From contig JALAGF010004012.1 in assembly GCA_030167865.1 (NCBI GenBank), positions 1-64,000 on the forward strand: a DNA stretch of 64,000 bases. The letters are read 5' to 3'. Every line of letters begins with the position of its first letter. The stretch's first letter is position 1. Position numbers and translations under genes: made by a program. Under the pieces are notes generated by a model. That model had not been told where the DNA came from, searched no databases, and saw only the letters and a list, made by a program, of their open reading frames with translations. This document shows, piece after piece, positions 26,797 through 41,934 of the stretch. Source of the stretch: Craspedostauros australis (lineage: Eukaryota).

Positions 26797-29132
26797 CTAC
26801 TCCCCGCCGCCCGGAGCTGCGGTTGGCCCGCCAAGCGCATCCAAGGCCAGCTGGTAGGCATCGCGGCAATCCATATCCGATTCGGTCTCCAGCTGGGTCT
26901 CGAGTGCTGGCTTGACGGTGGTGTCGACGAAGGCCAGCTGGTTTTCCTCCCCGGCCTTCTTGACCGCCTCGATGACTTGCGCCAATCCCTTGCCGGCGAC
27001 CATTCTGACGTTGGCGACGCCGTCTGAGATTCCGCGCAGTAGCTGGAGCATGACATCATTCCACAACGAGCTTCCCTCCGGCGACGTTCCTGCGCATGCG
27101 ACGGCTGTGGCGGCATGGGCTTGCAGGATGGTGATGCGGATGAGGTAGCTGCCGTTGGCGGCGTGATTGTAAATCCGTACGTGCTGCGGTAATATCTGCT
27201 TGACGAGCCATTCCTGCCCAGCGGTTCGGACCAGGGTCTCCATGCCGCTGACGCATGCGGCGCGGACGCTGGCTACGGGGTCGAGGAGGAGTCCTAGCCA
27301 GCATGGTTCGAGGAGGACATTGGTGAAGAATTCTGCGCCGCGTGCCTGGCAGAGATGCGGGAGGAGACGACCGACGCCTTCCCTTACTCTCCAGTTGGTG
27401 GCGCCTGCCATGCTGAGGATGGTGCTGACGACGCCGTCCATGTCCTGCAGGAGGTGCGCGAGTTTGCCTAGGTTGTTGAGGACCTGCAGCTGCACCTCCT
27501 GGAAGTCGTCCTGCAGGAAAGATTCGAGGTAGGATCCGAAGGATTGGAGGATGAGGGTGTCTTCGAGGGTTCCGCCCTGCGACGAGTCCATGATGGCGAG
27601 GGCGCACTTACTTCGGATTTCCATGACGAGATCGTCGGCCAGGGTTGGGAGGAGGGGTTGGAGGTGGGATTGGAATAGTTCTGAGCCGCCCCAGTGGACC
27701 ATGGGTGCGAAATGTCCGACGGCTGCGGCACGGACCTCTGGTTCGACGTCGCTGAGGAGTGAGACGAAGCATGCCATGATCATGGTCTGGTCGGCCGCGT
27801 ATCTTGCGTCACCAGCGAAGCCCAGATTCTGCGCCACTTCAGAGAAGTGTTTCGAGAGATTGTGACGAACGCGCCTGTTGTGTGTGTGTGTGGTATGATG
27901 TGTGTGTGGCATAGCGTGGATGGTTGTGTTGTGACGGTGTGCAAGGGATGGGGATTGGATTGTTGCCGATGAGAAGAATTGGGTGAATTGTATGCATTGC
28001 ATGAATGTGTTGTTGTTAGAATCAAACGAGATGTGCCCCTGCAAAGTCCATTCCATAGAAGGGCAGTCCATATCAAAGTCCATTCCAAAGTCCACACCAA
28101 TGGAATTGAATTGAATGGATGTGATGTTTGTACTTACCAGCTCATGTCAGTGCTTCCAAGACGCACGAAGGGCGCAAAGTGCTCCTTGGTCCAATCGGGC
28201 GTGTTTGCGTAGGTGGGTCCGACATCCGCCAAGGTGGCAACGGCCAGCATGCGGACGGAATCCTGCTCATCCTGGCACAGGTTCGGCAGACAGATGGTGG
28301 CAAGTTCGTTTGCCGAGGCGCGCGACTGCTGACTGGCGTGCTTTCCGAGCTGCGCAAGGAGCTTGCCCAGGTTTTTGGAGGCCGCGCGTCGGACCATGGG
28401 CGTCTCGTCCTGACAGAGCTCGCGGTAGAGGTAGGGCAGCTCGGCGTGGTGCGTGACCTGGTAGAGGGTGGGGATCATGCCGGCGACGCTGACCTTGGGC
28501 GTGAACCAGTCCGCGGTGGTGCAGCGGCGCGCCATGCCCACGAGGGTCTGTGAGACGCTGGGCTCCACGAGCGGCGGCGGCGTGGTGGTGGGCGTGGGCT
28601 GGGCGGGCTGGGCGACGCTGCTGAGCTGCAGCTGCAGGGCGACGTGCTGCATGGTCTCCACGGCCTGGTCGCGCACGACGGTCTCCTCCACGGCCGCCAG
28701 GCGCTCGAGAATGGGGAGGAGGGTGAGCATCTGCTGCGGCGTGGAGAGGAGCGACGGCACCATGGCCTCGAGCTGCTTGCCCAGCATGAGGAGGATCTCG
28801 TCCTCCAGCACGACCTGCGCAGCGGCGGCTGCCTCCGCGGCTCCTGCGCCGGTGGCCGCCTGGCCCTGCTGCAGCACCAGGGACTGCAGGTACGGGATGA
28901 GCTGCCCCATGACCGCCTCATTATTTCCGCTCTCGCACATGGCGCGCGCAACCACCTGCAACCGCTTCATGGCGTCCACCTTGGCCTCCGTGGATCCTGA
29001 CGACATCTGCGACTGGAACAGGGCCAGCGGGGAGAGGTTGGGGATCTCATCGGCTGTTTGCGGCAGAGTGCGCGCCAACGTCATGCTGGGCGTTGGCGTC
29101 ACGCCGTTCATCTCGAAGCTCATGTTGGGCAT
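26797..29132 (-). CDS. PP2AA: Protein phosphatase 2A scaffold (A/65-kDa) subunit, HEAT repeats (exons 29132-28138, 27874-26797; ~690 aa)
   Basis: LERLAAVEETVVRDQAV, WFTPKVS, LCQDETPMVRRAAS, DEQDSVR, DMSW|RVR across the GTAAG...CAG intron 28137-27875, DVEPEVRAAA, NWRVR, YLIRITIL, VANVR. Confidence 0.93.
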
Positions 29133-30227
29133 CTTGTCTCTTGTCTGTTGTGGTCTGTTGGTGTTATGCTGTCTTTAGTTGGTGGTCTCTTGTGCTATGC
29201 TGTGGTCTCTTGTCTTGTGCTGATAGTCTACACTGGTGCCTCACACTATCTTGCTAACAATGTTCCTATCAGTGCTCCTATCAATGCTGCTCCTGCTGCT
29301 GGATGACCCTCGAAACCCCAACAAGACGCAAGCTCCAGCACTAAAGTCGGCAAGAAGGCTAGTCTGCGCGCAAATGTCCGCAAAGCACGAAACCTGAGGG
29401 GAATGTCTGTCTTGGTGCCTGTTGTTGCTGTTGCTGTTGCTGTTGGCGGCAATGGTGGTTGCTCCTCTCCGTGCGTTGGATTGGATCAATGAACCAGCTT
29501 ATGTTCTGCTGTCTCTCTTGTCTGTCTCCGGTGACGTTCTGTTGTTGCAAAGTCTATTACCGTGGGTGTTGGTGAGTGTTGTTACCGAGAGTCCAACTCT
29601 ACTCTGTCGTTGTTGCTGTTACTGTTGCTGTTGCTGTCGTTGTTACTCTCGCTGTTGCCCCTCGTGTGTGCGGTTGCGATACTTCTCCTCGCTGTCTTGG
29701 ATGTTGGCGTCGGATGTCTTCGTGCTCTCTCCATTGCCGATCCGCACCACGACGACGAACTCAACGCTACGCTGCAGTATCCTTCGCCACGGACAGAAAC
29801 AACACGGCACTGCGTACTGCGACGCAACGGACGCGAACAACCACGATGCCACCACCAAAAGATTAACAATGACGATGACCGAAACACGGTTCAAGAACAG
29901 ACGCAGCTCAAATCGAGTCGGATCATTCGAAAGTCGGGTCGTGCTCCTTGGCGCCAAAATCGGGTTTTCTTCCAGCCTGCGACCACGATGCGATTGTTGG
30001 TCGCGGTGGGCCTTGTTTGGTGTCCACGGCGAGGTCCACGATGGGTGTTGGACGCACGCTCCACACGATGCGAAAGCAAGCACATGGAATGGAACACTGA
30101 ATCGTGGAAACTCCCTGACACGCACGGCGCTTGTATTGGACTCGTTGCATCAGAGGCCGATTGTTCTGCTCTTGCACGCTCCACTCCATGCACATCACAT
30201 CACGGCGAATGCAAAAACACGTTTGTG

Positions 30228-32369
30228 ATGGATACGCCATGCAAGAGATGCAAGATAGGTGGTGCTGAACCTGCACACGCTGTCTTCGCAGGTGCCGACG
30301 GGATGAGTGGCAGCGAGGAGTCTGAATACGAGTACAACGAAGATGATGAAGATGATGATGATACGAATTGCAATCAAAGTACCATAAATCGCTCTGCAAC
30401 TGAGATATCTCGCATCATCGATCTGTGTTCCAACGAAAGAGCATCAAACATGGATGGCCATCTGAAAGAAGTGATGTCCGATCATCGAGATCATGACAAC
30501 GAAGATGTCTTTCATGATGATGGCGATCATGCCGATGATAGCGAACAGGAAGAGAGTGATGCAGAATCTTACATCTACGTGGACGAAGATGAACAGGACA
30601 ACAACAGCAATGCCAACAACGATGGTGATGCTGAATGCAATGCCCTGGTTGATCAGAGCGAAGCGCAACAATCAAGTATCCACACTGGGTCATCAACCGG
30701 CGGCCACGGCAACCTCCCATGTGATGGCGGGGCTGCTTCTGCTTTCGGTGCTTCATCATCTTGGCCAGTCGCCGTGAAGACTCATGGTGACGATGACCAT
30801 GACGATTACAAACCGGACACCACGAAAGATTCCAGCGTCTTCAAGGCAGAGAGGGCCCTCAACATGGCACAGAACCTTGCCTTCCGCATTCAGGCCATCC
30901 ACGACGAAGTCGTCGGAGGAAGCGGTGTCAAGGACAAATACCAAGACAAGGGCAAGGGTGTTGCCAGCAACACCAATAATGCCAGCCACGATGCCGGCTG
31001 GAATAGGACACTTGGTGGCGGCAACCACAGCCAACAAACCCCAATACCAAGGTCGGTGCATATCTCCAGGACAACGCACGCGCTCGCACCACCCCCTCCC
31101 GTTGACCTTGCGACCTTGGGAATCCAACCCTTCAAGAAGCTCGATCTCATCGTGTTGGCGCAGCGGTTGATCCATTGCCGCGACGAGTTCCGAAGGCAGA
31201 ACCGCCCGTTCCTCATCGACATTGGCTATCACTACACCGTCGGCCACAACCTGGATAAGATTGTCGATCACGGACTGCTCACCAAGTGCGACCGCGACAC
31301 GGAGGGCATCTGCAACAGGTTCAACGGCGCGGCCTACGGCAACGGCGTCTACACCTGCGACAACTTCGTCGGCACGACGAGCTACGGCGATATCGGTCTG
31401 GTCGTCGCACGTCTCCAAGGCACGCCCGAGTACGACCATCCAACGGACGCCGCAGCCAACACGGTAATCGTCCCAAAGAACGCGTACACGGTCCTCAAGA
31501 CATCGGCCCAGTGCTGCCCGCTGGTGCAGTACCCCACGTCGATGCTGCGACGATCCACGCAAGTGACGACCCTTCTGCACCGGTATCGCTGGAAGCTCCA
31601 GTGCTTGCTCGACGAGGTCTTCCACCAGGTGCCCTCCCCGGCCATCGAGCCACTGATGTCCAAAAAGGCCGGTTTTGAGTGTCCCGGCATCCCCCGGCGT
31701 TTCTTCATGGCGCTCGATGCGCTGGCGTACGATGCTCCCAAGAGGCTCAACGATTACATCCTTCCCGACATCTTTCGCGAGGTCACGGACATGAGCAGCC
31801 TCGACGAGGCTTCGCGAACGTGCTCCATGTGCCGAAGACCCACCGCCAACGCCCCATCCGTGTCCATGAGGTGCTGTTCCGAAGTGTGTCACAAGAAGTG
31901 CATCAGTAGCTGGTTCGACGGCCACCTGCATTGCCACAAGTGCAACAAAGCGGTGCCGACCACGATCGGCTCCATGCCCAACGGCACCATGATCGTGCAT
32001 CCTGATGATGCTCGCCCACAGAAGGGCACGGAGCCGTCTTGCCGAAGCGTGCGGATCGAGTACAGCATCGAGCGAGGCCATCAGAAGAGCTACCACCCGC
32101 ACCCCGGCAAATCATGGATCGGGGTGGCGAAATCCGCGGCCCTGCCGTACGTGACGGAGGAGGACAAGATGCGGCTGGGTAGATTGAAGTACGCCTTTCT
32201 GAATGGCCACGTCCTCATCCTCAAGGCGAATGCCTTCAAACACGTGACCATCGCGTGGGGCTCCATCCCGCATTTCGTGTCCGGCGTCGGACGCAACGAG
32301 CGGGACCTTGCGAGGATTGATGCGGCGCTGGACAACCTATGCATCCCCAACTTCGTCATGGAGGCTTGA
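30228..32369 (+). CDS. PARP-like ADP-ribosyltransferase domain + RING + Deltex C-terminal (DTC) domain protein (Deltex-like E3 ligase)
   Basis: ART-like DIGYHYT..NLDKIVDHGL..GAAYGNGVYTCD..SYG..ARLQG..AQCCPL (~31210-31535); RING CSMC..CCSEVCHKKCI..CHKC (~31820-31945); DTC GSMPNGTM..RIEYSI..GHQKSYHPHPG..RLKYAF..AWGSIPH. Start is 30228 or 30303; the ORF extension to 29562 does not look coding. Confidence 0.82.
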   Translation: MDTPCKRCKIGGAEPAHAVFAGADGMSGSEESEYEYNEDDEDDDDTNCNQSTINRSATEISRIIDLCSNERASNMDGHLKEVMSDHRDHDNEDVFHDDGDHADDSEQEESDAESYIYVDEDEQDNNSNANNDGDAECNALVDQSEAQQSSIHTGSSTGGHGNLPCDGGAASAFGASSSWPVAVKTHGDDDHDDYKPDTTKDSSVFKAERALNMAQNLAFRIQAIHDEVVGGSGVKDKYQDKGKGVASNTNNASHDAGWNRTLGGGNHSQQTPIPRSVHISRTTHALAPPPPVDLATLGIQPFKKLDLIVLAQRLIHCRDEFRRQNRPFLIDIGYHYTVGHNLDKIVDHGLLTKCDRDTEGICNRFNGAAYGNGVYTCDNFVGTTSYGDIGLVVARLQGTPEYDHPTDAAANTVIVPKNAYTVLKTSAQCCPLVQYPTSMLRRSTQVTTLLHRYRWKLQCLLDEVFHQVPSPAIEPLMSKKAGFECPGIPRRFFMALDALAYDAPKRLNDYILPDIFREVTDMSSLDEASRTCSMCRRPTANAPSVSMRCCSEVCHKKCISSWFDGHLHCHKCNKAVPTTIGSMPNGTMIVHPDDARPQKGTEPSCRSVRIEYSIERGHQKSYHPHPGKSWIGVAKSAALPYVTEEDKMRLGRLKYAFLNGHVLILKANAFKHVTIAWGSIPHFVSGVGRNERDLARIDAALDNLCIPNFVMEA

Positions 32370-32861
32370 GGTGTTGTCGCGCGCATCCCATCTGCGAGAA
32401 TAGAACGAAAATCATAAGGATAGAATCTGCATTGTACCGACGTGCGCTCCCATCACACTACCATTGTGCGATGTGGCGTGACGCTATATAGCACGTATTG
32501 TATGTATTGCTCTCTGCTCAACTTGTTGCGCTTTTGTTGCTTTCCTGTGTTGGCATCATCGGTGTGAGTGTACGATCTACTTGCGCTTACGCATCAGTAC
32601 GAGCAGGTGTGACATGTGCGCTGAAGATTTCGGAACACCCAAAAGATACCTCCACGTGGAATCAAGGCAAAGACGGTTCGTATCTTTGTGAAAGATCCAT
32701 CCAATAAATCTGCGCAGAGACGCAGCCAGCCAAGCCAGCAGACATCACATTGATTCTGTGGTGTGGACGACCCATGGCACAAACTATAACTCCAGAGCGT
32801 GGATGACAGTGCAGCTGCATCGCCCATCCATTGTTCAACGAGTAGGCGTACAATTGACAAC

Positions 32862-34367
32862 ATGTCTCGGTCGCTGCTGCGATTGCCGACGGCCTCTCTG
32901 GTGCAAAGATGTGCCATCCGACTGCAACGCCGATCCGCGTTCTCCGCACTGCAGAACGCTCTCCACGAGTCAGAGCACCATGAAGGGCATCGTGGACAGC
33001 ACCGTGGACAGCACCGTGGAGATGACAACAGCCCGCTGCCAGTCGAGGAGATCGTGCGACTGGACTCCGAACACGTGTGGCATCCCTACGCAAGCCTCCC
33101 CAACACGACCACGCCCTGCTTCCCCGTGGAACGAGCCGATGGGTGCACCATCACGCTGTCGGACGGCCGGCAGCTGGTGGACGGCATGTCATCCTGGTGG
33201 GCCTGCATCCATGGCTACAACCATCCCGTTCTCAACGAGGCCGCGCAGCAGCAGATCGGCAACATGTCGCACATGATGTTCGGTGGCCTCACGCACGAAC
33301 CGGCCGTCCGGCTTGCCAAGACGCTGTCCGACATGACGCCCCGTTGTGAGAAGAGGGCGTTGGATAAGGTCTTCTTCTGCGATTCGGGCAGCGTCGCGAT
33401 CGAGGTCGCCATGAAGATGGCGCTGCAATATCACTACAACCTGGCCGCCATCCAAGGCACCAGCGGCAACCCGCCAAGGTCCAAGTTCCTCACCATCTCG
33501 GGTGGATACCACGGCGACACCTTCCACGCCATGAGCGTTTGCGATCCGGTCAACGGGATGCACCATCTCTTCTCCAAGTCTTTGATACCGCAGATCTTCT
33601 GTCCGAGGCCCGAGATCACCGCCGATCAGGAGTGGAATGACGACGATCCGTCCTTGAAGGCTTTCTTTCAGCATCTCGACCACAACGAAGACGAGATCGC
33701 TGCCGTCATCCTCGAGCCCATCGTGCAGGGCGCGGGCGGAATGAGGTTCTACCATCCCAACTACCTCAAGGCCATCCGGGAGGCCTGCGATGACCGCGGC
33801 ATTCTGTTGATCGCCGATGAGATCGCCACCGGCTTTGGTCGATCCGGGGAGCTCTTCGCCTGCCAGCATGCCGACATCACACCTGACATCCTCTGTGTCG
33901 GCAAGGCTCTCAGCGGCGGTTTCCTCAGCTTTGCAGCTGCGATCACAACCGGCCAGGTGTCGGAGGTCTTCGCCCAGGGCCCCGCCGGCGTCCTCATGCA
34001 CGGACCCACCTTCATGGGCAACCCGCTGGCCTGCGCCGTGTCCGATGCCAATCTGCGCCTCCTGCAATCCTACGATTGGCATGGTACGGTTCGGGATATT
34101 GAAACGCAGCTGAAGCAGCAGCTGGAACCGGCCAAGCAGAGTCCCCACGTCCAGGATGTGCGCGTTATGGGCGCGATCGGTGTCATTGAGATGAAGGAGC
34201 AGATGAACATGAGTATTGTGCAACCGGAGCTCGTCCATGAGCACGGCGTGTGGTTGCGTCCGTTCGGGAAGCTGCTGTACACCATGCCGCCCTTCGTCAT
34301 CCAGAAGGAGGAGTTGCAAAGTATCACGGATGCCATGGTGAAGCTTGCTCATCGCGGTCCTCGGTAA
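32862..34367 (+). CDS. bioA: Adenosylmethionine-8-amino-7-oxononanoate (DAPA) aminotransferase with mitochondrial-type leader
   Basis: HVWHPY, VDGMSSWWACIHGYNHP, MFGGLTH, DSGSVAIEVAMKMALQY, YHGDT, EPIVQGAGGM, IADEIATGFGRSG, GKALSGG (PLP Lys), HGPTFMGNPLACA, WLRPFGKLLYTMPP; Arg/Ser/Leu-rich N-terminus. Confidence 0.96.
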   Translation: MSRSLLRLPTASLVQRCAIRLQRRSAFSALQNALHESEHHEGHRGQHRGQHRGDDNSPLPVEEIVRLDSEHVWHPYASLPNTTTPCFPVERADGCTITLSDGRQLVDGMSSWWACIHGYNHPVLNEAAQQQIGNMSHMMFGGLTHEPAVRLAKTLSDMTPRCEKRALDKVFFCDSGSVAIEVAMKMALQYHYNLAAIQGTSGNPPRSKFLTISGGYHGDTFHAMSVCDPVNGMHHLFSKSLIPQIFCPRPEITADQEWNDDDPSLKAFFQHLDHNEDEIAAVILEPIVQGAGGMRFYHPNYLKAIREACDDRGILLIADEIATGFGRSGELFACQHADITPDILCVGKALSGGFLSFAAAITTGQVSEVFAQGPAGVLMHGPTFMGNPLACAVSDANLRLLQSYDWHGTVRDIETQLKQQLEPAKQSPHVQDVRVMGAIGVIEMKEQMNMSIVQPELVHEHGVWLRPFGKLLYTMPPFVIQKEELQSITDAMVKLAHRGPR

Positions 34368-34767: not shown

Positions 34768-36975
34768 TCAATTGGCCAACTCCCCCTTAGCGGCCTTGGT
34801 GTTGTGGAAGTAAAAATAGCCTGCCTTGCGTGCCCGTTCCATGCATGGAATGCAGGCGCCCGGCCCGTTGCGTCCATTGTCCTCCTCCAGCCAGACCAGC
34901 TTGGATGCGGGCGGCGAGAACGATCCTGGTCGCTGTGTCTGTGATGGCGCCAAACAAGTCAATGGAGAAGTGGTCCCCTTGCCGCTGCTGTCGGGGGAGA
35001 TTTGCTTCGCGCGATCTCCACTCCCGTTGCCTCCCTCCGCAGCATCGACATTCTCCTTGCCGTCGCTCGCAGCATCCTGATCGACCTCCATGCCATCCCC
35101 GGGCTTGTCGGCGTCCAGGATGTTGGACACGGTCCACACCTTGGGACTGCAAGCTTTGCACACCACCTCGGTGCACCATCGGCACCGCTGGTAGTCGCAG
35201 TCCGAGCACAGGGCCTCGTGGCAGACGTTGCACCCATCCTTGAGAAGCTTGGCATCCTTGCAATCCTTGCAGTGCGGTCCGCACTTGGACTTGCACTGCT
35301 CCCAGGAATGCATATGCCGGCGGGAGCACCATGAGCAGAGCTGTTTGGGGCAGCTGGAGCATGTTTTGGCGTGGATACAGATGATCTGCTTGCAGAAATC
35401 GCATTGCGGCGCTTGTTTGCTCGGCGCAACAGTGCTGGCGTCCTTGTTTTTGCCGTTGGCTTGATTGCTGGATTCTTTGTGATCATGATCGGCTGTGGCT
35501 TTGTCGGCGCAGGCATCGATGCTGCCGTGGCAATCATCGCAGACGAGGCAGTTGGGCTGGATCTGATGGTGCCGGCAGCAGCAGTTCGTGAAAGACTGCA
35601 CCCATCCCGTCTTGTGGCACTTGAGGCAGGCCTTCTCCTGCACCAAGCGCTCATGTCGGCGCTGCACTTCCTCCAGTTGCAGAGTGTTGGGTGCGTTCGA
35701 GTCAACCGCTGTTGTTGTTGTTGTTGGATCTCCCTTGCCGGTTGTTGCCGGTGGTGTCGCAACCACGCTGGACTTTTGATCGTCATCAGCCGCATCCTCA
35801 GTGCTAGATGACGGTGTCATTGCTGACTTTGGCGGGGTGCTCGAAGTCGAATCTGATTGGATGGATTTGGATGGCGACACGTTGTTGTTGGTAGATTTGG
35901 ATGGATCATTGACACTGGCATTGTCATCACCTGCGATGGAAGAGAGGGGCGAGACTCTGGAAGTTGCGGGGTCACCCAAGAGCTTCTTCCCAGCTGGCGA
36001 CCTTGCAGCCTGGATCTCCGTCCGCAACCGATCGATGTGCACGCTGAGGCGGTCCAGGGTGTCGTTATCGAGAGAATGAAAGGCGTGCACGGGGACCTGC
36101 AAGATCATCTTGGCCCAAATGGAGCTGGTGGCCGAGGTGAGAAGAGCGGGTGGAGACGTGGCCACGGAAGATGTGAGCGCCGCCGGAGACGTGATGCTAG
36201 GATTGCCGACAGGCGGATGGTTTGCGTTGCCGTGAAGCGTGGCGATGTCGAAGTCCGAAGACGTGACTCGACGCGAGTGCATGGACTGCGGTGTCGGGAA
36301 GGAGGATGTCGGAGGAAAGACCTTGCGTCGAACATCTGACAGAGGGTTGTGGAAGTGATTGCTGGCGACCTCGCTGCGGCTTGCACTTGCAGCTGCCATG
36401 GCCAGCACATCCACACCGGCGGGTGTGCTCGCGCCATGCAGCAACGGAGTGCCCCGCGCATGCGCTCCCGTTGCCGGCCGTAGTCGAGGTTGGAGAAGAT
36501 GGTGGTTCTGCGAGAACGGTTGGTGCGGTTGCCGTGAATGATGCTGAGTGTAGGGTTGTGGCTGGAAGCTGGTGAGTCCAGAGAGGGCTTTCAGTTCGGT
36601 GGCAGAAACTCTGTGAGTGGCAAGTTCCGAGGTGATGGCCGCAGCGGTCTGACCAACCTTGATGCGTTTGTTCGGTCTGCCATCGTTTCCGCTGTTGGCA
36701 CTGCCACTGCCGATGCCGCTATTGAGCGGATGAGCCGGGTGGCTGTTCTCTTCCCTTGTCTTCATGTGAGCATTCGCCTGCAGCGACGCATTCGCCTGCA
36801 TCTGAGCTCCATGATAAGCGAACAAATAGTGGTGCTGACGATGTTGCTCCTTCTGTAGATGCTGCTCCATCAGCATGGGCAAGATGTCATCGCTGTCGCT
36901 AGCACTTGCAATACCGCTGTTGCCGCTGTTGGCATTGTTGGCACTGACCCCAGTGCTTCCCTGGGTGATGACCAT
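34768..36975 (-). CDS. Hypothetical protein: low-complexity N-half plus multi-CxxC (zinc-binding) C-half
   Basis: 735-aa uninterrupted ORF with more than 10 CxxC pairs (CDFC..CSSC..CSWC..CKDC..CNVC..CSDC..CRWC..CKAC) and an NLS-like RPNKRIK. Confidence 0.8.
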   Translation of the reverse strand: MVITQGSTGVSANNANSGNSGIASASDSDDILPMLMEQHLQKEQHRQHHYLFAYHGAQMQANASLQANAHMKTREENSHPAHPLNSGIGSGSANSGNDGRPNKRIKVGQTAAAITSELATHRVSATELKALSGLTSFQPQPYTQHHSRQPHQPFSQNHHLLQPRLRPATGAHARGTPLLHGASTPAGVDVLAMAAASASRSEVASNHFHNPLSDVRRKVFPPTSSFPTPQSMHSRRVTSSDFDIATLHGNANHPPVGNPSITSPAALTSSVATSPPALLTSATSSIWAKMILQVPVHAFHSLDNDTLDRLSVHIDRLRTEIQAARSPAGKKLLGDPATSRVSPLSSIAGDDNASVNDPSKSTNNNVSPSKSIQSDSTSSTPPKSAMTPSSSTEDAADDDQKSSVVATPPATTGKGDPTTTTTAVDSNAPNTLQLEEVQRRHERLVQEKACLKCHKTGWVQSFTNCCCRHHQIQPNCLVCDDCHGSIDACADKATADHDHKESSNQANGKNKDASTVAPSKQAPQCDFCKQIICIHAKTCSSCPKQLCSWCSRRHMHSWEQCKSKCGPHCKDCKDAKLLKDGCNVCHEALCSDCDYQRCRWCTEVVCKACSPKVWTVSNILDADKPGDGMEVDQDAASDGKENVDAAEGGNGSGDRAKQISPDSSGKGTTSPLTCLAPSQTQRPGSFSPPASKLVWLEEDNGRNGPGACIPCMERARKAGYFYFHNTKAAKGELAN

Positions 36976-39699: not shown

Positions 39700-41934
39700 A
39701 TGGATTTGGATCAGGGCTTCGTCGTGGTCAACGTGCGCTCGGACAACGAGCACGAAGCTCAAGCCACCAAAGCTGAGGAGGAAGTATTTCGGCAGGCAGC
39801 AGCATCATTTGACGCGGCACCGGCGTCGCCTTCGTCCTTAGAACCATCTGCTGGGGAGGTCGAATCGTCACCAGTCCCATCATCCACCAATACCGGCCAC
39901 AACCATCGATACTTCCATAATCAACATCACAACATCAACCACAACGACAACGACAACCACAACTACGAGTACGGCCAACACCACAATCACAACCAAAGCC
40001 ACAGCAACCATCACCCACATAACCACAACCACAGTTACGGCCTAAATCACACGCCAAGTCACTCTCACAATTTCGAGAGCAACCTCACCACTCGCGCAGA
40101 ACAATCTGGCCAAAGGCCAACATCAAGCAACGTGTCGGTTTCCACCTCCGGGTCAGGGTCTGCATGTCGGTCAGCGACAGACCCAGGCCACCTCTTCGTT
40201 TCGCCGTCTCCAGATTGTCACAACTTTTATGAATCACCATCCCAAAGTCCGCACTTGCATCTCTATCAGCAGCAGCAACACTATCAGCAACGGCAACATC
40301 GACAACAACAACGACAACAACGACAGCAACAACGACAACAACTTGAGCATCATCACCAGTATCGACAGCAGCGTCAGGACCTTGACCAGAGTCAGTACCA
40401 GTATCAGTCTTCGCAGCAACCGCAGCAGCAGCAAAGCGGCCTTGGACGTCAGTACATCCAGTCAACCCAACTTGCCCAATCAACACCATCGTCATCGTCA
40501 ACGTCGTCGTCGCAACAGTACTCGAGCGGTACAGAGCAACAATCCTTGGACGAGCGAAACAGACTGATCGAGCAGCAGCAGCAGTGGCTCATCGAACAAC
40601 AACGCCAGCTACAAAGAGAACAGCAGAGACTGCAACAGCAGCGACAGCAGCTTGAACGTCAGCAGAGATTGCAGGCGGAACGCGAGGAGCACATCCGAAG
40701 GTTGCGAGAGCTCGATCAGCAGCTGGCGATTGGCTCAGCCTATCCATCAGCACCACCGCTCACGACATCCCGCAGCGAAACCGTCGCCGGCAGCAGCAAC
40801 AGCAGCAGCAACAGTTACACGAGCAACGCAGACGTCCCTTCCATGCCGCCACAACGCCGAACCAGATCCGCAGACGCTCACCAGCTCCTGCACAACCCAG
40901 GCATATTGCGCACACCCATGGAGCCTCGGTTCGAGCAGCGCCAACGCACGCGCTCCTCGCCACATCCGCAGCCATATCACCATGCGCGTTCTCATGCTGA
41001 CTATCAGCAACCGCCACGGCCGCTCTCGCCCCACGCTGCTGCCTACGGTATACCGGAGGAGGACATCGGCGCTCCCAACATGCAAGCAGATGCGGACCTC
41101 AGTCAGCACGACTCGGACAGCCAAATCGAAAAGGACAGCGAGGTCGCGCGCTTCCTGCAAAAGCAGGAGGAAACGCAGGCCATGATCGAAGCGCACAACT
41201 CCGTTCAGAACGAGCACTCCGAGATGCTCTGCACTCCCTGCGGCAGGGCCATTCTATTCGTCGAAACCGTGTGCGATGCCTGGAGGCGGGTCCTCAGCCA
41301 GGAGACGCCATCCGTCCGAGGGGCCGTACGCTTCGTCATCCGCCAGGAGGAGATCATCCCGAAGGTGGAGCAGCTCCTCGAGATCCAGGACATCTACAAG
41401 GCGTGCGGGAAGCCGGCCGACATCGACCTAGGCTACTACTTCGCCACCAGCGACGAGGTGTCCGCGGTGCGCACTTCTGGAATCCAAGTCGCCTATCCAG
41501 ATCTCAGCCGCATCAACGCCCACGGCGATCACCACAACGTGCACATCTTCGGCGAGGGCGTGTACACTTCGGACGCATTCAGCAACATCGCCATGAGGAG
41601 CAAGCAGGTCGCCATGTCGGTCATCCGTCTCAAGGGCAAGGTCGGCACCGTCCGCGTTGTCCAGCCAGAAAACCGCATGTTCGTCAAGCTTGACAACGTC
41701 AGCGAGGACACAGAGTTCGACACGTTGCTCGGCAATTCCACCATCCCATCGCACACCTTCACACCCGGAAACTGCCCGAACGATCAGGTGGTCCTCAAGA
41801 CGGCGCAGCAGTGCCTTCCCCTCATTCAGTTCCCAACCGCCATGGTGCGCAATCCGAATCACGCCGTTCTCTTGCGTCGCCTGCACGACACGCTCAATGG
41901 GATCATCAGCACCGTGTTGAACGCGGGTGTTTGA
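39700..41934 (+). CDS. His/Gln-rich protein with MIU-like motif and degenerate PARP-like ART domain (paralogous to the domain in 30228-32369)
   Basis: KPADIDLGYYF..VRTSGI..FGEGVYTSDAF..IRLKG..VVLKTAQQCLPLIQFP aligns with RPFLIDIGYHYT..YGNGVYTCDNF..ARLQG..TVLKTSAQCCPLVQYP; DSEVARFLQKQEE; no RING or DTC. Confidence 0.82.
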   Translation: MDLDQGFVVVNVRSDNEHEAQATKAEEEVFRQAAASFDAAPASPSSLEPSAGEVESSPVPSSTNTGHNHRYFHNQHHNINHNDNDNHNYEYGQHHNHNQSHSNHHPHNHNHSYGLNHTPSHSHNFESNLTTRAEQSGQRPTSSNVSVSTSGSGSACRSATDPGHLFVSPSPDCHNFYESPSQSPHLHLYQQQQHYQQRQHRQQQRQQRQQQRQQLEHHHQYRQQRQDLDQSQYQYQSSQQPQQQQSGLGRQYIQSTQLAQSTPSSSSTSSSQQYSSGTEQQSLDERNRLIEQQQQWLIEQQRQLQREQQRLQQQRQQLERQQRLQAEREEHIRRLRELDQQLAIGSAYPSAPPLTTSRSETVAGSSNSSSNSYTSNADVPSMPPQRRTRSADAHQLLHNPGILRTPMEPRFEQRQRTRSSPHPQPYHHARSHADYQQPPRPLSPHAAAYGIPEEDIGAPNMQADADLSQHDSDSQIEKDSEVARFLQKQEETQAMIEAHNSVQNEHSEMLCTPCGRAILFVETVCDAWRRVLSQETPSVRGAVRFVIRQEEIIPKVEQLLEIQDIYKACGKPADIDLGYYFATSDEVSAVRTSGIQVAYPDLSRINAHGDHHNVHIFGEGVYTSDAFSNIAMRSKQVAMSVIRLKGKVGTVRVVQPENRMFVKLDNVSEDTEFDTLLGNSTIPSHTFTPGNCPNDQVVLKTAQQCLPLIQFPTAMVRNPNHAVLLRRLHDTLNGIISTVLNAGV

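Follow-up and report, generated by a model that had tools for sequence, protein, structure and literature searches.

The window analysed here is a 64,000-nucleotide stretch of Craspedostauros australis DNA (GenBank assembly GCA_030167865.1, contig JALAGF010004012.1, positions 1 to 64,000). Its + strand carries a gene for a single protein chain comprising, in order, an acidic N-terminus, a PARP-fold ADP-ribosyltransferase (ART)-like domain, a disordered linker, a RING finger and a Deltex C-terminal (DTC) domain. An earlier note, made from the letters of this stretch alone, had proposed ART, RING and DTC in one polypeptide, which is borne out by the single open reading frame, a Pfam match for the DTC domain and structural matches for the folds. 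HEAT-repeat frames lie on the upstream side of this gene, and an aminotransferase gene, a frame with a Cys-rich half and a second ART-like gene follow downstream (Table 1).

Table 1 Coordinates of the features in the window. Residue numbers of the ART-RING-DTC protein are those of its C-terminal 424-residue fragment.
Feature	Position	Strand	Remarks
Coding sequence of the ART-RING-DTC protein (P0001)	30228..32369	+	713 aa + stop; start as chosen in the earlier note, uncertain
N-terminal acidic low-complexity region	30228..31094	+	289 aa, 20% Asp+Glu
PARP-fold ART-like domain	31131..31622	+	residues 13-176; AlphaFold and structural matches, Pfam silent
His46 in 'GYHYT', proposed triad His	31230..31232	+	His in 134/136 relatives with the column; invariant in alignments A1-A3
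Tyr86 in 'GNGVY' ('GxGxY'), proposed triad Tyr	31350..31352	+	Tyr in 139/140
Tyr131 in KNAYTVL, at the proposed canonical catalytic Glu position	31485..31487	+	family alignment
Disordered linker, ART-like domain to RING	31632..31712	+	predicted local distance difference test (pLDDT) <50; residues 180-206
RING finger	31821..31943	+	seven of eight zinc-ligand columns Cys or His
RING ligand 4, Glu263	31881-31883	+	normally His (≥90% of relatives)
DTC domain, ADP-ribose pocket degenerate	31962..32348	+	Pfam PF18102 and model
Pro392-His393, at DTX2 His582-His583	32268..32273	+	His583 equivalent kept
Ala411, at DTX2 Glu608	32325..32327	+	alignment
HEAT-repeat frames, two adjacent	26797-28083, 28134-29132	-	HEAT repeats by Pfam; upstream
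Class-III aminotransferase	32862-34364	+	Aminotran_3 E 4.9e-123; downstream of the ART-RING-DTC gene
Open frame, 735 aa, C-terminal half Cys-rich	34768-36975	-	no Pfam match at E≤0.01
Second ART-like gene P0161, 744 aa	39700-41934	+	ART-like part 41119-41931; 9 kb downstream

The + strand frame is free of stop codons from 29562 to the stop codon at 32367-32369, a span of 2.8 kb, with in-frame ATG codons at 29988, 30084 and 30228 as candidate starts. Relatives matched 31122-32345 in tblastn as one continuous piece, and the gene therefore runs from the ART-like part to the DTC domain without an intron or frame break. Sequencing run X1 (type guessed as 'RNA?'; 0.08 of words) gave one 297-base contig identical to 32150-32440, covering the DTC end only. 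Triplet repeats of CTG/CAG type, with a poly-Leu run in frame, occupy 29400-29650, upstream of the likely start; short X1 pieces matched only the CTG-repeat stretch at about 29604-29644 (many unrelated contigs; 7 of the 8 pieces listed, out of 9). A pure pseudogene was considered and rejected, given the 2.8 kb of open frame and the confident predicted folding of both domains.

Scanning of 29988-31094 returned no Pfam family at E≤0.01 for the N-terminal region. The C-terminal 424 residues, hereafter the fragment (residue i starts at 31095+3(i-1)), were modelled with AlphaFold from a 77-sequence alignment, giving a pLDDT of 85.0 and a predicted template modelling score (pTM) of 0.62. A separate AlphaFold model of the ART-like part, covering the 215 residues encoded by 31095-31739 and built from a 93-sequence alignment, reached a pLDDT of 85.5 and a pTM of 0.80.

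Structural comparison of the ART-like domain returned PARP10, PARP12, PARP14, PARP15 and tankyrase as best matches. With the ART model as query, Foldseek matched PARP10 at 3.7e-6, and among the best 500 matches counted, 231 had E≤1e-3. A comparison independent of Foldseek, against 48,161 chains, placed PARPs or pseudo-PARPs in all of the top 16 positions (Z 10.8-13.1), including PARP10, 13 and 15, RCD1, tankyrase, TASOR, PARP1-4 and SRO1, with bacterial ART toxins and DarT ranking after the PARPs at Z 4-6; the 424-residue model matched PARP10 at Z 14.0. Sequence-based searches gave little: the ART-like domain of the window protein matched no Pfam family at E≤1, PF00644 included, and PARP matches in Pfam were found in 9 of 40 relatives and were weak (best E 0.0017). 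Neither phmmer with the ART part nor an ART-only profile of 12 sequences found a PARP chain among solved structures, the profile giving a weak DarT1 match (E 0.065) over the 'YHYT..N..I..GL' stretch, and a protein atlas supplied low-score leads (0.81-0.85) to PARP clusters. On the models, the middle domain clearly has the PARP catalytic fold.

The DTC domain was recognized directly by Pfam PF18102, with E 3.7e-9 and 37.3 bits against a cut-off of 25 for the full protein and E 1.8e-9 for the fragment; the same family matched 40 of 40 aligned relatives. Searching solved structures with phmmer returned DTX2, DTX3L and DTX1 at 8.5e-5 to 3.2e-4. The model, with pLDDT 74-95 over the DTC domain, superposes on the DTX3L DTC (3pg6) at Z 16.0 with a root-mean-square deviation (rmsd) of 2.0 over 126 residues and 28% identity, and its RING-DTC part superposes on DTX2 (6y22) and DTX1 (6y5n) at Z 15.4 and 15.3 over 194-196 residues. 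The RING finger itself is sub-threshold in Pfam (zf-RING_2, E 0.53), and a neighbouring Cys lies two residues past Glu263, the residue at ligand 4.

Several particulars of the earlier note held up in these analyses. Its motifs YHYT..NL..I...GL, YGNGVY and KNAYTVL stand where it had placed them, and its domain limits, 31100-31620 and 31960-32350, are correct to about 30 bases. The AlphaFold and Foldseek check that it had proposed for the first interval found a PARP fold, and the Deltex_C domain that it had expected in the second was recovered both by Pfam PF18102 and by structural match. Absence of an ART-fold match in the middle domain, which it had named as a refuting result, did not occur.

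Family alignment was used to locate the catalytic residues of the ART-like domain. From motif and strand position, His46 and Tyr86 would correspond to the His and Tyr of the PARP triad. Where the PARP motif that we take to be 'H-G-S/T' would stand, the window protein has 'H-Y-T'. For the third residue we relied on what we take to be the PARP arrangement, in which the triad Glu is followed by four strand residues and, eight positions on, by a Gln. The column of Tyr131 lies eight residues before the nearly invariant Gln139, and by strand register and this presumed motif it would be the triad Glu position. Glu occupies this column in 49 of 140 proteins, the others having V, I, M, L, F or other residues; Tyr occurs in three, the window gene and two relatives. 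A further 22 of the 104 proteins having all columns carry Glu one position earlier. The triad of the window protein thus reads H-Y-Y, and the observation in the earlier note that KNAYTVL offers no Glu at the third catalytic position is confirmed, Tyr131 standing there. Passages of PMC2964712 describe the triad Glu as essential to chain elongation, PARP10, with Ile in its place, as a mono-transferase, and the clade 6 PARPs (PARP6, 8 and 16) as lacking the Glu while keeping His and Tyr, with mono-transfer known or predicted. An H-Y-Y triad would permit mono-transfer at most.

Residues of the DTC pocket were compared with those of DTX2, whose numbering equals the 6y22 chain numbering + 387, as checked at His582, His594 and Glu608. 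According to passages of PMC7442474, Trp578 and His594 stack on the adenine, His582 hydrogen-bonds the ribose, and Arg535 and Ser567/568 hold the diphosphate; part of PMC7615817 assigns to His582 and Glu608 the role of a catalytic pair in activating the ADP-ribose 3'-hydroxyl, mutation of either, including E608Q, markedly affecting hydroxyl ubiquitylation. Among this ADP-ribose pocket and catalytic set, Trp578 is the sole residue kept in the window protein. Arg535 is replaced by Lys, the Ser567/568 loop ('GTSS') by 'KANA', which is shorter by two residues, His582 by Pro392 and Glu608 by Ala411, while His594, within 'GHGxPDP', is lost with a 7-residue deletion just upstream of Ala411. Because Pro, a deletion and Ala stand at the places of His582, His594 and Glu608, and the loops are altered, the Deltex ADP-ribose reader and activator pocket is largely gone in the window copy. 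The expectation that the DTC domain would bind ADP-ribose or NAD+ for ubiquitylation of ADP-ribose is therefore unsupported for this gene.

An exhaustive HMMER search with the C-terminal 424 residues against 1.84 billion cluster representatives was required to recover the family, as word-indexed homologue searches had given just 3 and 2 relatives. It returned 1096 representatives at E≤1e-3, of which 482 reached ≤1e-10 and 62 reached ≤1e-30; the top match was only 36% identical. The set examined comprised 152 proteins, namely 150 listed among the HMMER matches and two Chaetoceros proteins, aligned to the profile of alignment A1. ART columns, a RING keeping 7 or more of its 8 ligands and a DTC domain occur together in 89 of the 152; the remainder show ART and DTC with a degenerate RING (9) or without an aligned RING (6), ART and RING only (21), RING-DTC only (16), ART only (10) or DTC only (1), and many of these partial architectures may stem from truncated contigs.

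Four source organisms, every one a diatom, are named among the 30 proteins looked up and the Chaetoceros matches: Chaetoceros tenuissimus, a Bacillariaceae metagenome-assembled genome, Amphora coffeiformis and Thalassiosira sp. The three-domain architecture is a common form in a large diatom family, to judge by these four named sources, and no one-off. Database labels for the relatives looked up are "deltex", "deltex-like protein", "Deltex C-terminal domain/Ring finger domain", "RING-type E3 ubiquitin transferase" and "hypothetical protein"; none of these names contains ART or PARP.

The pocket residues vary across the family. At the His582 column, 65 proteins have His, 38 have Pro and 20 have another residue. 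At the Glu608 column 79 have Glu and 18 have Ala, and at the His594 column 66 have His and 30 have Phe or Tyr. The DTC His/Glu pair is intact in 36 of 60 proteins with the ART Glu vs 16 of 44 without it (n=104; Fisher p 0.028, uncorrected for relatedness), and the association is only a hint. The Thalassiosira sp. member P0131 has an H-Y-E triad.

Some members depart from the basic layout. In P0046, the family profile finds three separate matching stretches, and RING and DTC residues are present without ART columns; P0105 apparently has two tandem ART-like domains; from these two proteins, domain duplication appears to occur inside the family. In alignment A1, many members have short acidic helices of 'LxxALALSLQ' type just N-terminal to the ART-like domain, for example 'AFAMKLQQEQEEE' in P0004 and 'LDHALALSLQ' in P0022, which look like ubiquitin-interacting motifs such as those of PARP10. 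P0003 and P0004 also have a putative RanBP2-like 'WNCTRCTF...C' zinc finger. The window protein has no clear copy of either the ALALSLQ helix or the RanBP2-like finger.

Of 153 sequences, 34 were dropped for low occupancy; the remaining 119, each occupying at least 75% of 460 columns, were used for a midpoint-rooted FastTree phylogeny. The window protein falls inside a 14-tip clade with Shimodaira–Hasegawa-like support of 0.92, containing an inner 12-tip clade with support of 0.95; its sister group is poorly supported (0.17). Its root-to-tip path, 2.55 vs a median of 1.42, is the longest in the tree, and it appears to be a fast-evolving member of this large diatom family. No member of the 14-tip clade has the ART Glu at either candidate position. 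Among the 13 members with aligned DTC columns, Glu608 is present in none and Pro stands at 582 in 12, P0097 being the member that retains His; P0150, the 14th, shows no aligned DTC column. The ART His, the Tyr and the 'GxGxY' motif are invariant across the whole subclade, and P0044, P0045, P0055 and P0103 have lost the RING cysteines while keeping the ART His and Tyr. This pattern points to a subclade that gave up the Glu of the ART and the His/Glu pair of the DTC while keeping the general folds and the His and Tyr of the NAD+ pocket. Beyond these shared losses, the window copy lacks the adenine-stacking loop, has a shorter diphosphate loop and differs at one RING ligand.

The second ART-like gene, P0161, encodes a protein that ends in an ART-like domain paralogous to the first. 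In tblastn this domain matched the ART-RING-DTC gene of the window at E 1.7e-10 and P0016 at 3e-20. P0161 has no RING or DTC domain, has a Gln/His-rich N-terminus and matched no Pfam family above threshold. Because its triad His is replaced by Tyr ('GYYFAT') and its Glu position by Gln, P0161 looks like a pseudo-ART.

The aminotransferase is named by sources as adenosylmethionine-8-amino-7-oxononanoate aminotransferase (BioA). Its best match is 70% identical, and its closest named relatives, at 62-67%, are from pennate diatoms (Cylindrotheca, Bacillariaceae sp., Pseudo-nitzschia, Nitzschia and Seminavis). These identities place the window in a diatom of pennate type that has no close representative in the protein collection. 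The next named matches are from the cyanobacteria Leptolyngbya and Leptothoe, at about 59-61% identity, which suggests that this diatom gene is of cyanobacterial origin. On the other side of the ART-RING-DTC gene, the two HEAT frames are probably one gene split by an intron of about 50 bases, whose product, by eye only, we take to resemble the PP2A scaffold subunit. The HEAT gene is transcribed away from the ART-RING-DTC gene, the two sharing an intergenic region of about 1.1 kb.

The architecture, folds, residue states and family context established above leave the function of the window protein to be weighed. The reading that we prefer, and to which we give an even chance, is that of an NAD+-binding domain, at most mono-transferring, joined to a RING-DTC module that has ceased to act on ADP-ribose. 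The ART-like domain would still bind NAD+ and would be at most a mono-ADP-ribosyltransferase, or else a sensor of NAD+ or ADP-ribose. The RING-DTC module would no longer ubiquitylate ADP-ribose and would instead be an ordinary lysine-directed E3 ligase or a structural platform. Activity as a mono-ART or as an E3 ligase, like the binding of NAD+, is what we infer here for the window protein. Several points weigh against this reading. The ART-like domain of the window protein is too divergent to be matched by the PARP family of Pfam, and the pseudo-PARPs TASOR, RCD1 and PARP13 score as high as active PARPs, so that the fold alone proves no activity. The placing of Tyr131 at the triad Glu comes from the family alignment and a presumed motif and not from a residue-level structural alignment. 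The Cys near Glu263, or His393, could replace lost residues in a way that sequence would not reveal. A wholly inactive protein would account no less well for the long branch, for the Glu that stands at RING ligand 4 and for the degraded DTC pocket.

Such a protein, with both the ART-like domain and the RING-DTC module dead and acting as a scaffold, a decoy or a regulatory partner (of canonical paralogues, for example), is a less likely explanation that we nevertheless take seriously. It has a precedent in the inactive PARP9, which pairs with DTX3L, and besides the longest branch in the tree, the changed RING ligand and a pocket keeping Trp578 alone, it would accommodate the four clade-mates without RING cysteines, the equally good fold matches to pseudo-PARPs and the second ART-like gene 9 kb away without the triad His. 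The invariance of the ART His, Tyr and 'GxGxY' throughout the subclade, however, would be unexpected were NAD+ binding dispensable, and the frame is still open over more than 2.1 kb. The coupled writer envisaged in the earlier note, whose ART would mono-ADP-ribosylate a target, whose DTC domain would bind the ADP-ribose and whose RING would transfer ubiquitin onto it, is improbable for this gene. The presence of the three domains in one chain is in keeping with it, as are canonical members such as Chaetoceros P0004, which retain H-Y-E together with His582, His594 and Glu608, and the family-wide association of the ART Glu with the DTC pair. The window copy, however, has Pro at 582, Ala at 608, no His594 loop and a short diphosphate loop, and passages of PMC7615817 and PMC7442474 describe the residues concerned as necessary both to bind ADP-ribose and to activate the hydroxyl. 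Coupling of ADP-ribose writing to ubiquitin transfer is a reasonable prediction for the canonical branches, with H-Y-E and a full pocket, but not for the window copy, whose pocket residues are lost; a single-chain writer of ADP-ribose-ubiquitin is better sought in branches such as that of Chaetoceros. An artefact of the gene model, with the ART-like and RING-DTC parts belonging to separate genes or transcripts or to a pseudogene locus, is very improbable. The ART/RING-DTC junction and the start codon are without transcript support, but no stop codon separates the domains, relatives align unbroken over 31122-32345, the same architecture recurs in 89 of 152 relatives, including an Amphora coffeiformis protein present in both EukProt and UniRef, and both domains are predicted to fold with high confidence.

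A broader picture, which we doubt more than we trust, would be that of a large, overlooked and diversifying diatom family of PARP-fold ADP-ribosyltransferases joined in one chain to Deltex ligases, whose canonical members, with H-Y-E and an intact His/Glu pocket, would be self-sufficient writers of a hybrid ADP-ribose-ubiquitin mark. The subclade around the window gene would then be derived and naturally 'uncoupled', having abandoned the hybrid chemistry in both modules at once, perhaps as a regulator or decoy of the canonical enzymes. The fusion of a PARP fold to RING-DTC recurs in at least 89 sequence clusters, which gives independent evidence from evolution that both activities share substrates, and the family offers compact single-chain enzymes for testing ADP-ribose-ubiquitin chemistry. 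The window gene is chiefly of value as a natural loss-of-function contrast, in which the ART Glu, the DTC His/Glu pair, the adenine loop and a RING ligand are gone while the frame and folds are kept.

Passages of PMC2964712 report that Phaeodactylum tricornutum and Thalassiosira pseudonana appear to be PARP-less, and part of PMC4245714 reports PARPs, among diatoms, in T. oceanica only. The present family may correct a gap in this record, since annotation says only "deltex" or "RING-type E3" and these surveys call Phaeodactylum and Thalassiosira pseudonana PARP-less (the family was not searched in either species). The literature searched, supplementary files aside, describes neither a PARP-RING-DTC fusion nor deltex-like proteins of diatoms, though an earlier review may list the architecture. 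Term look-ups in 10.64898/2026.04.23.720386, PMC12687431, PMC4245714 and PMC2964712 gave no description of the fusion in the portions of text returned, and the word Deltex is absent from PMC4245714 and PMC2964712.

The general theme of PARP-ubiquitin-system fusion is already known, because surveys describe fusions with UBCc, U-box, UBA and RWD domains (parts of PMC4245714 and PMC2964712). Like the window protein, the PARP6/8-UBCc proteins of fungi, moss and green algae and the U-box-macro-PARP of Dictyostelium, described in the same parts of these surveys, place an ART fold and a ubiquitin-system domain in one chain, but the partner is E2-like or a U-box and not RING-DTC. The clade 3 mono-ART PARPs (PARP10, 12, 14 and 15) resemble the ART-like domain in fold (Z 13-14, rmsd of about 3.0 over about 140 residues) and in having His, Tyr and a non-Glu third residue, but are 14-18% identical to it, and none has RING-DTC.

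Among Deltex proteins, human and fly DTX1/2/4 (WWE-RING-DTC) share the RING directly before the DTC domain. They carry N-terminal ADP-ribose-reading WWE domains where the window protein has an ART fold, consistent with the statement in the earlier note that canonical Deltex N-termini carry no ART, which holds for the animal proteins, and they keep Trp578, His582, His594 and Glu608, whereas the window protein keeps the Trp alone. In the human DTX3L-PARP9 system (and PARP14), a PARP-fold domain is likewise combined with a RING-DTC ligase, the DTX3L DTC being the best structural match, and PARP9 lacks the triad Glu, as does the window ART (a passage of PMC2964712). That system, however, consists of two proteins joined via the DTX3L D3 domain (part of PMC10955461), whereas the window protein is one chain; and DTX3L keeps 'IHHKTS' and a Glu at the Glu608 column in the family-profile alignment, whereas the window DTC pocket is degenerate. 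Chaetoceros tenuissimus CTEN210_09807 (P0004), a canonical member of the same diatom family, has the same domain order and shares 27% identity with the window protein across 90% of the fragment, but combines an H-Y-E triad ('HEFVL') and eight RING ligands with 'WASIHHKT...CHGFPDP...EELNNLG', the full DTX pocket.

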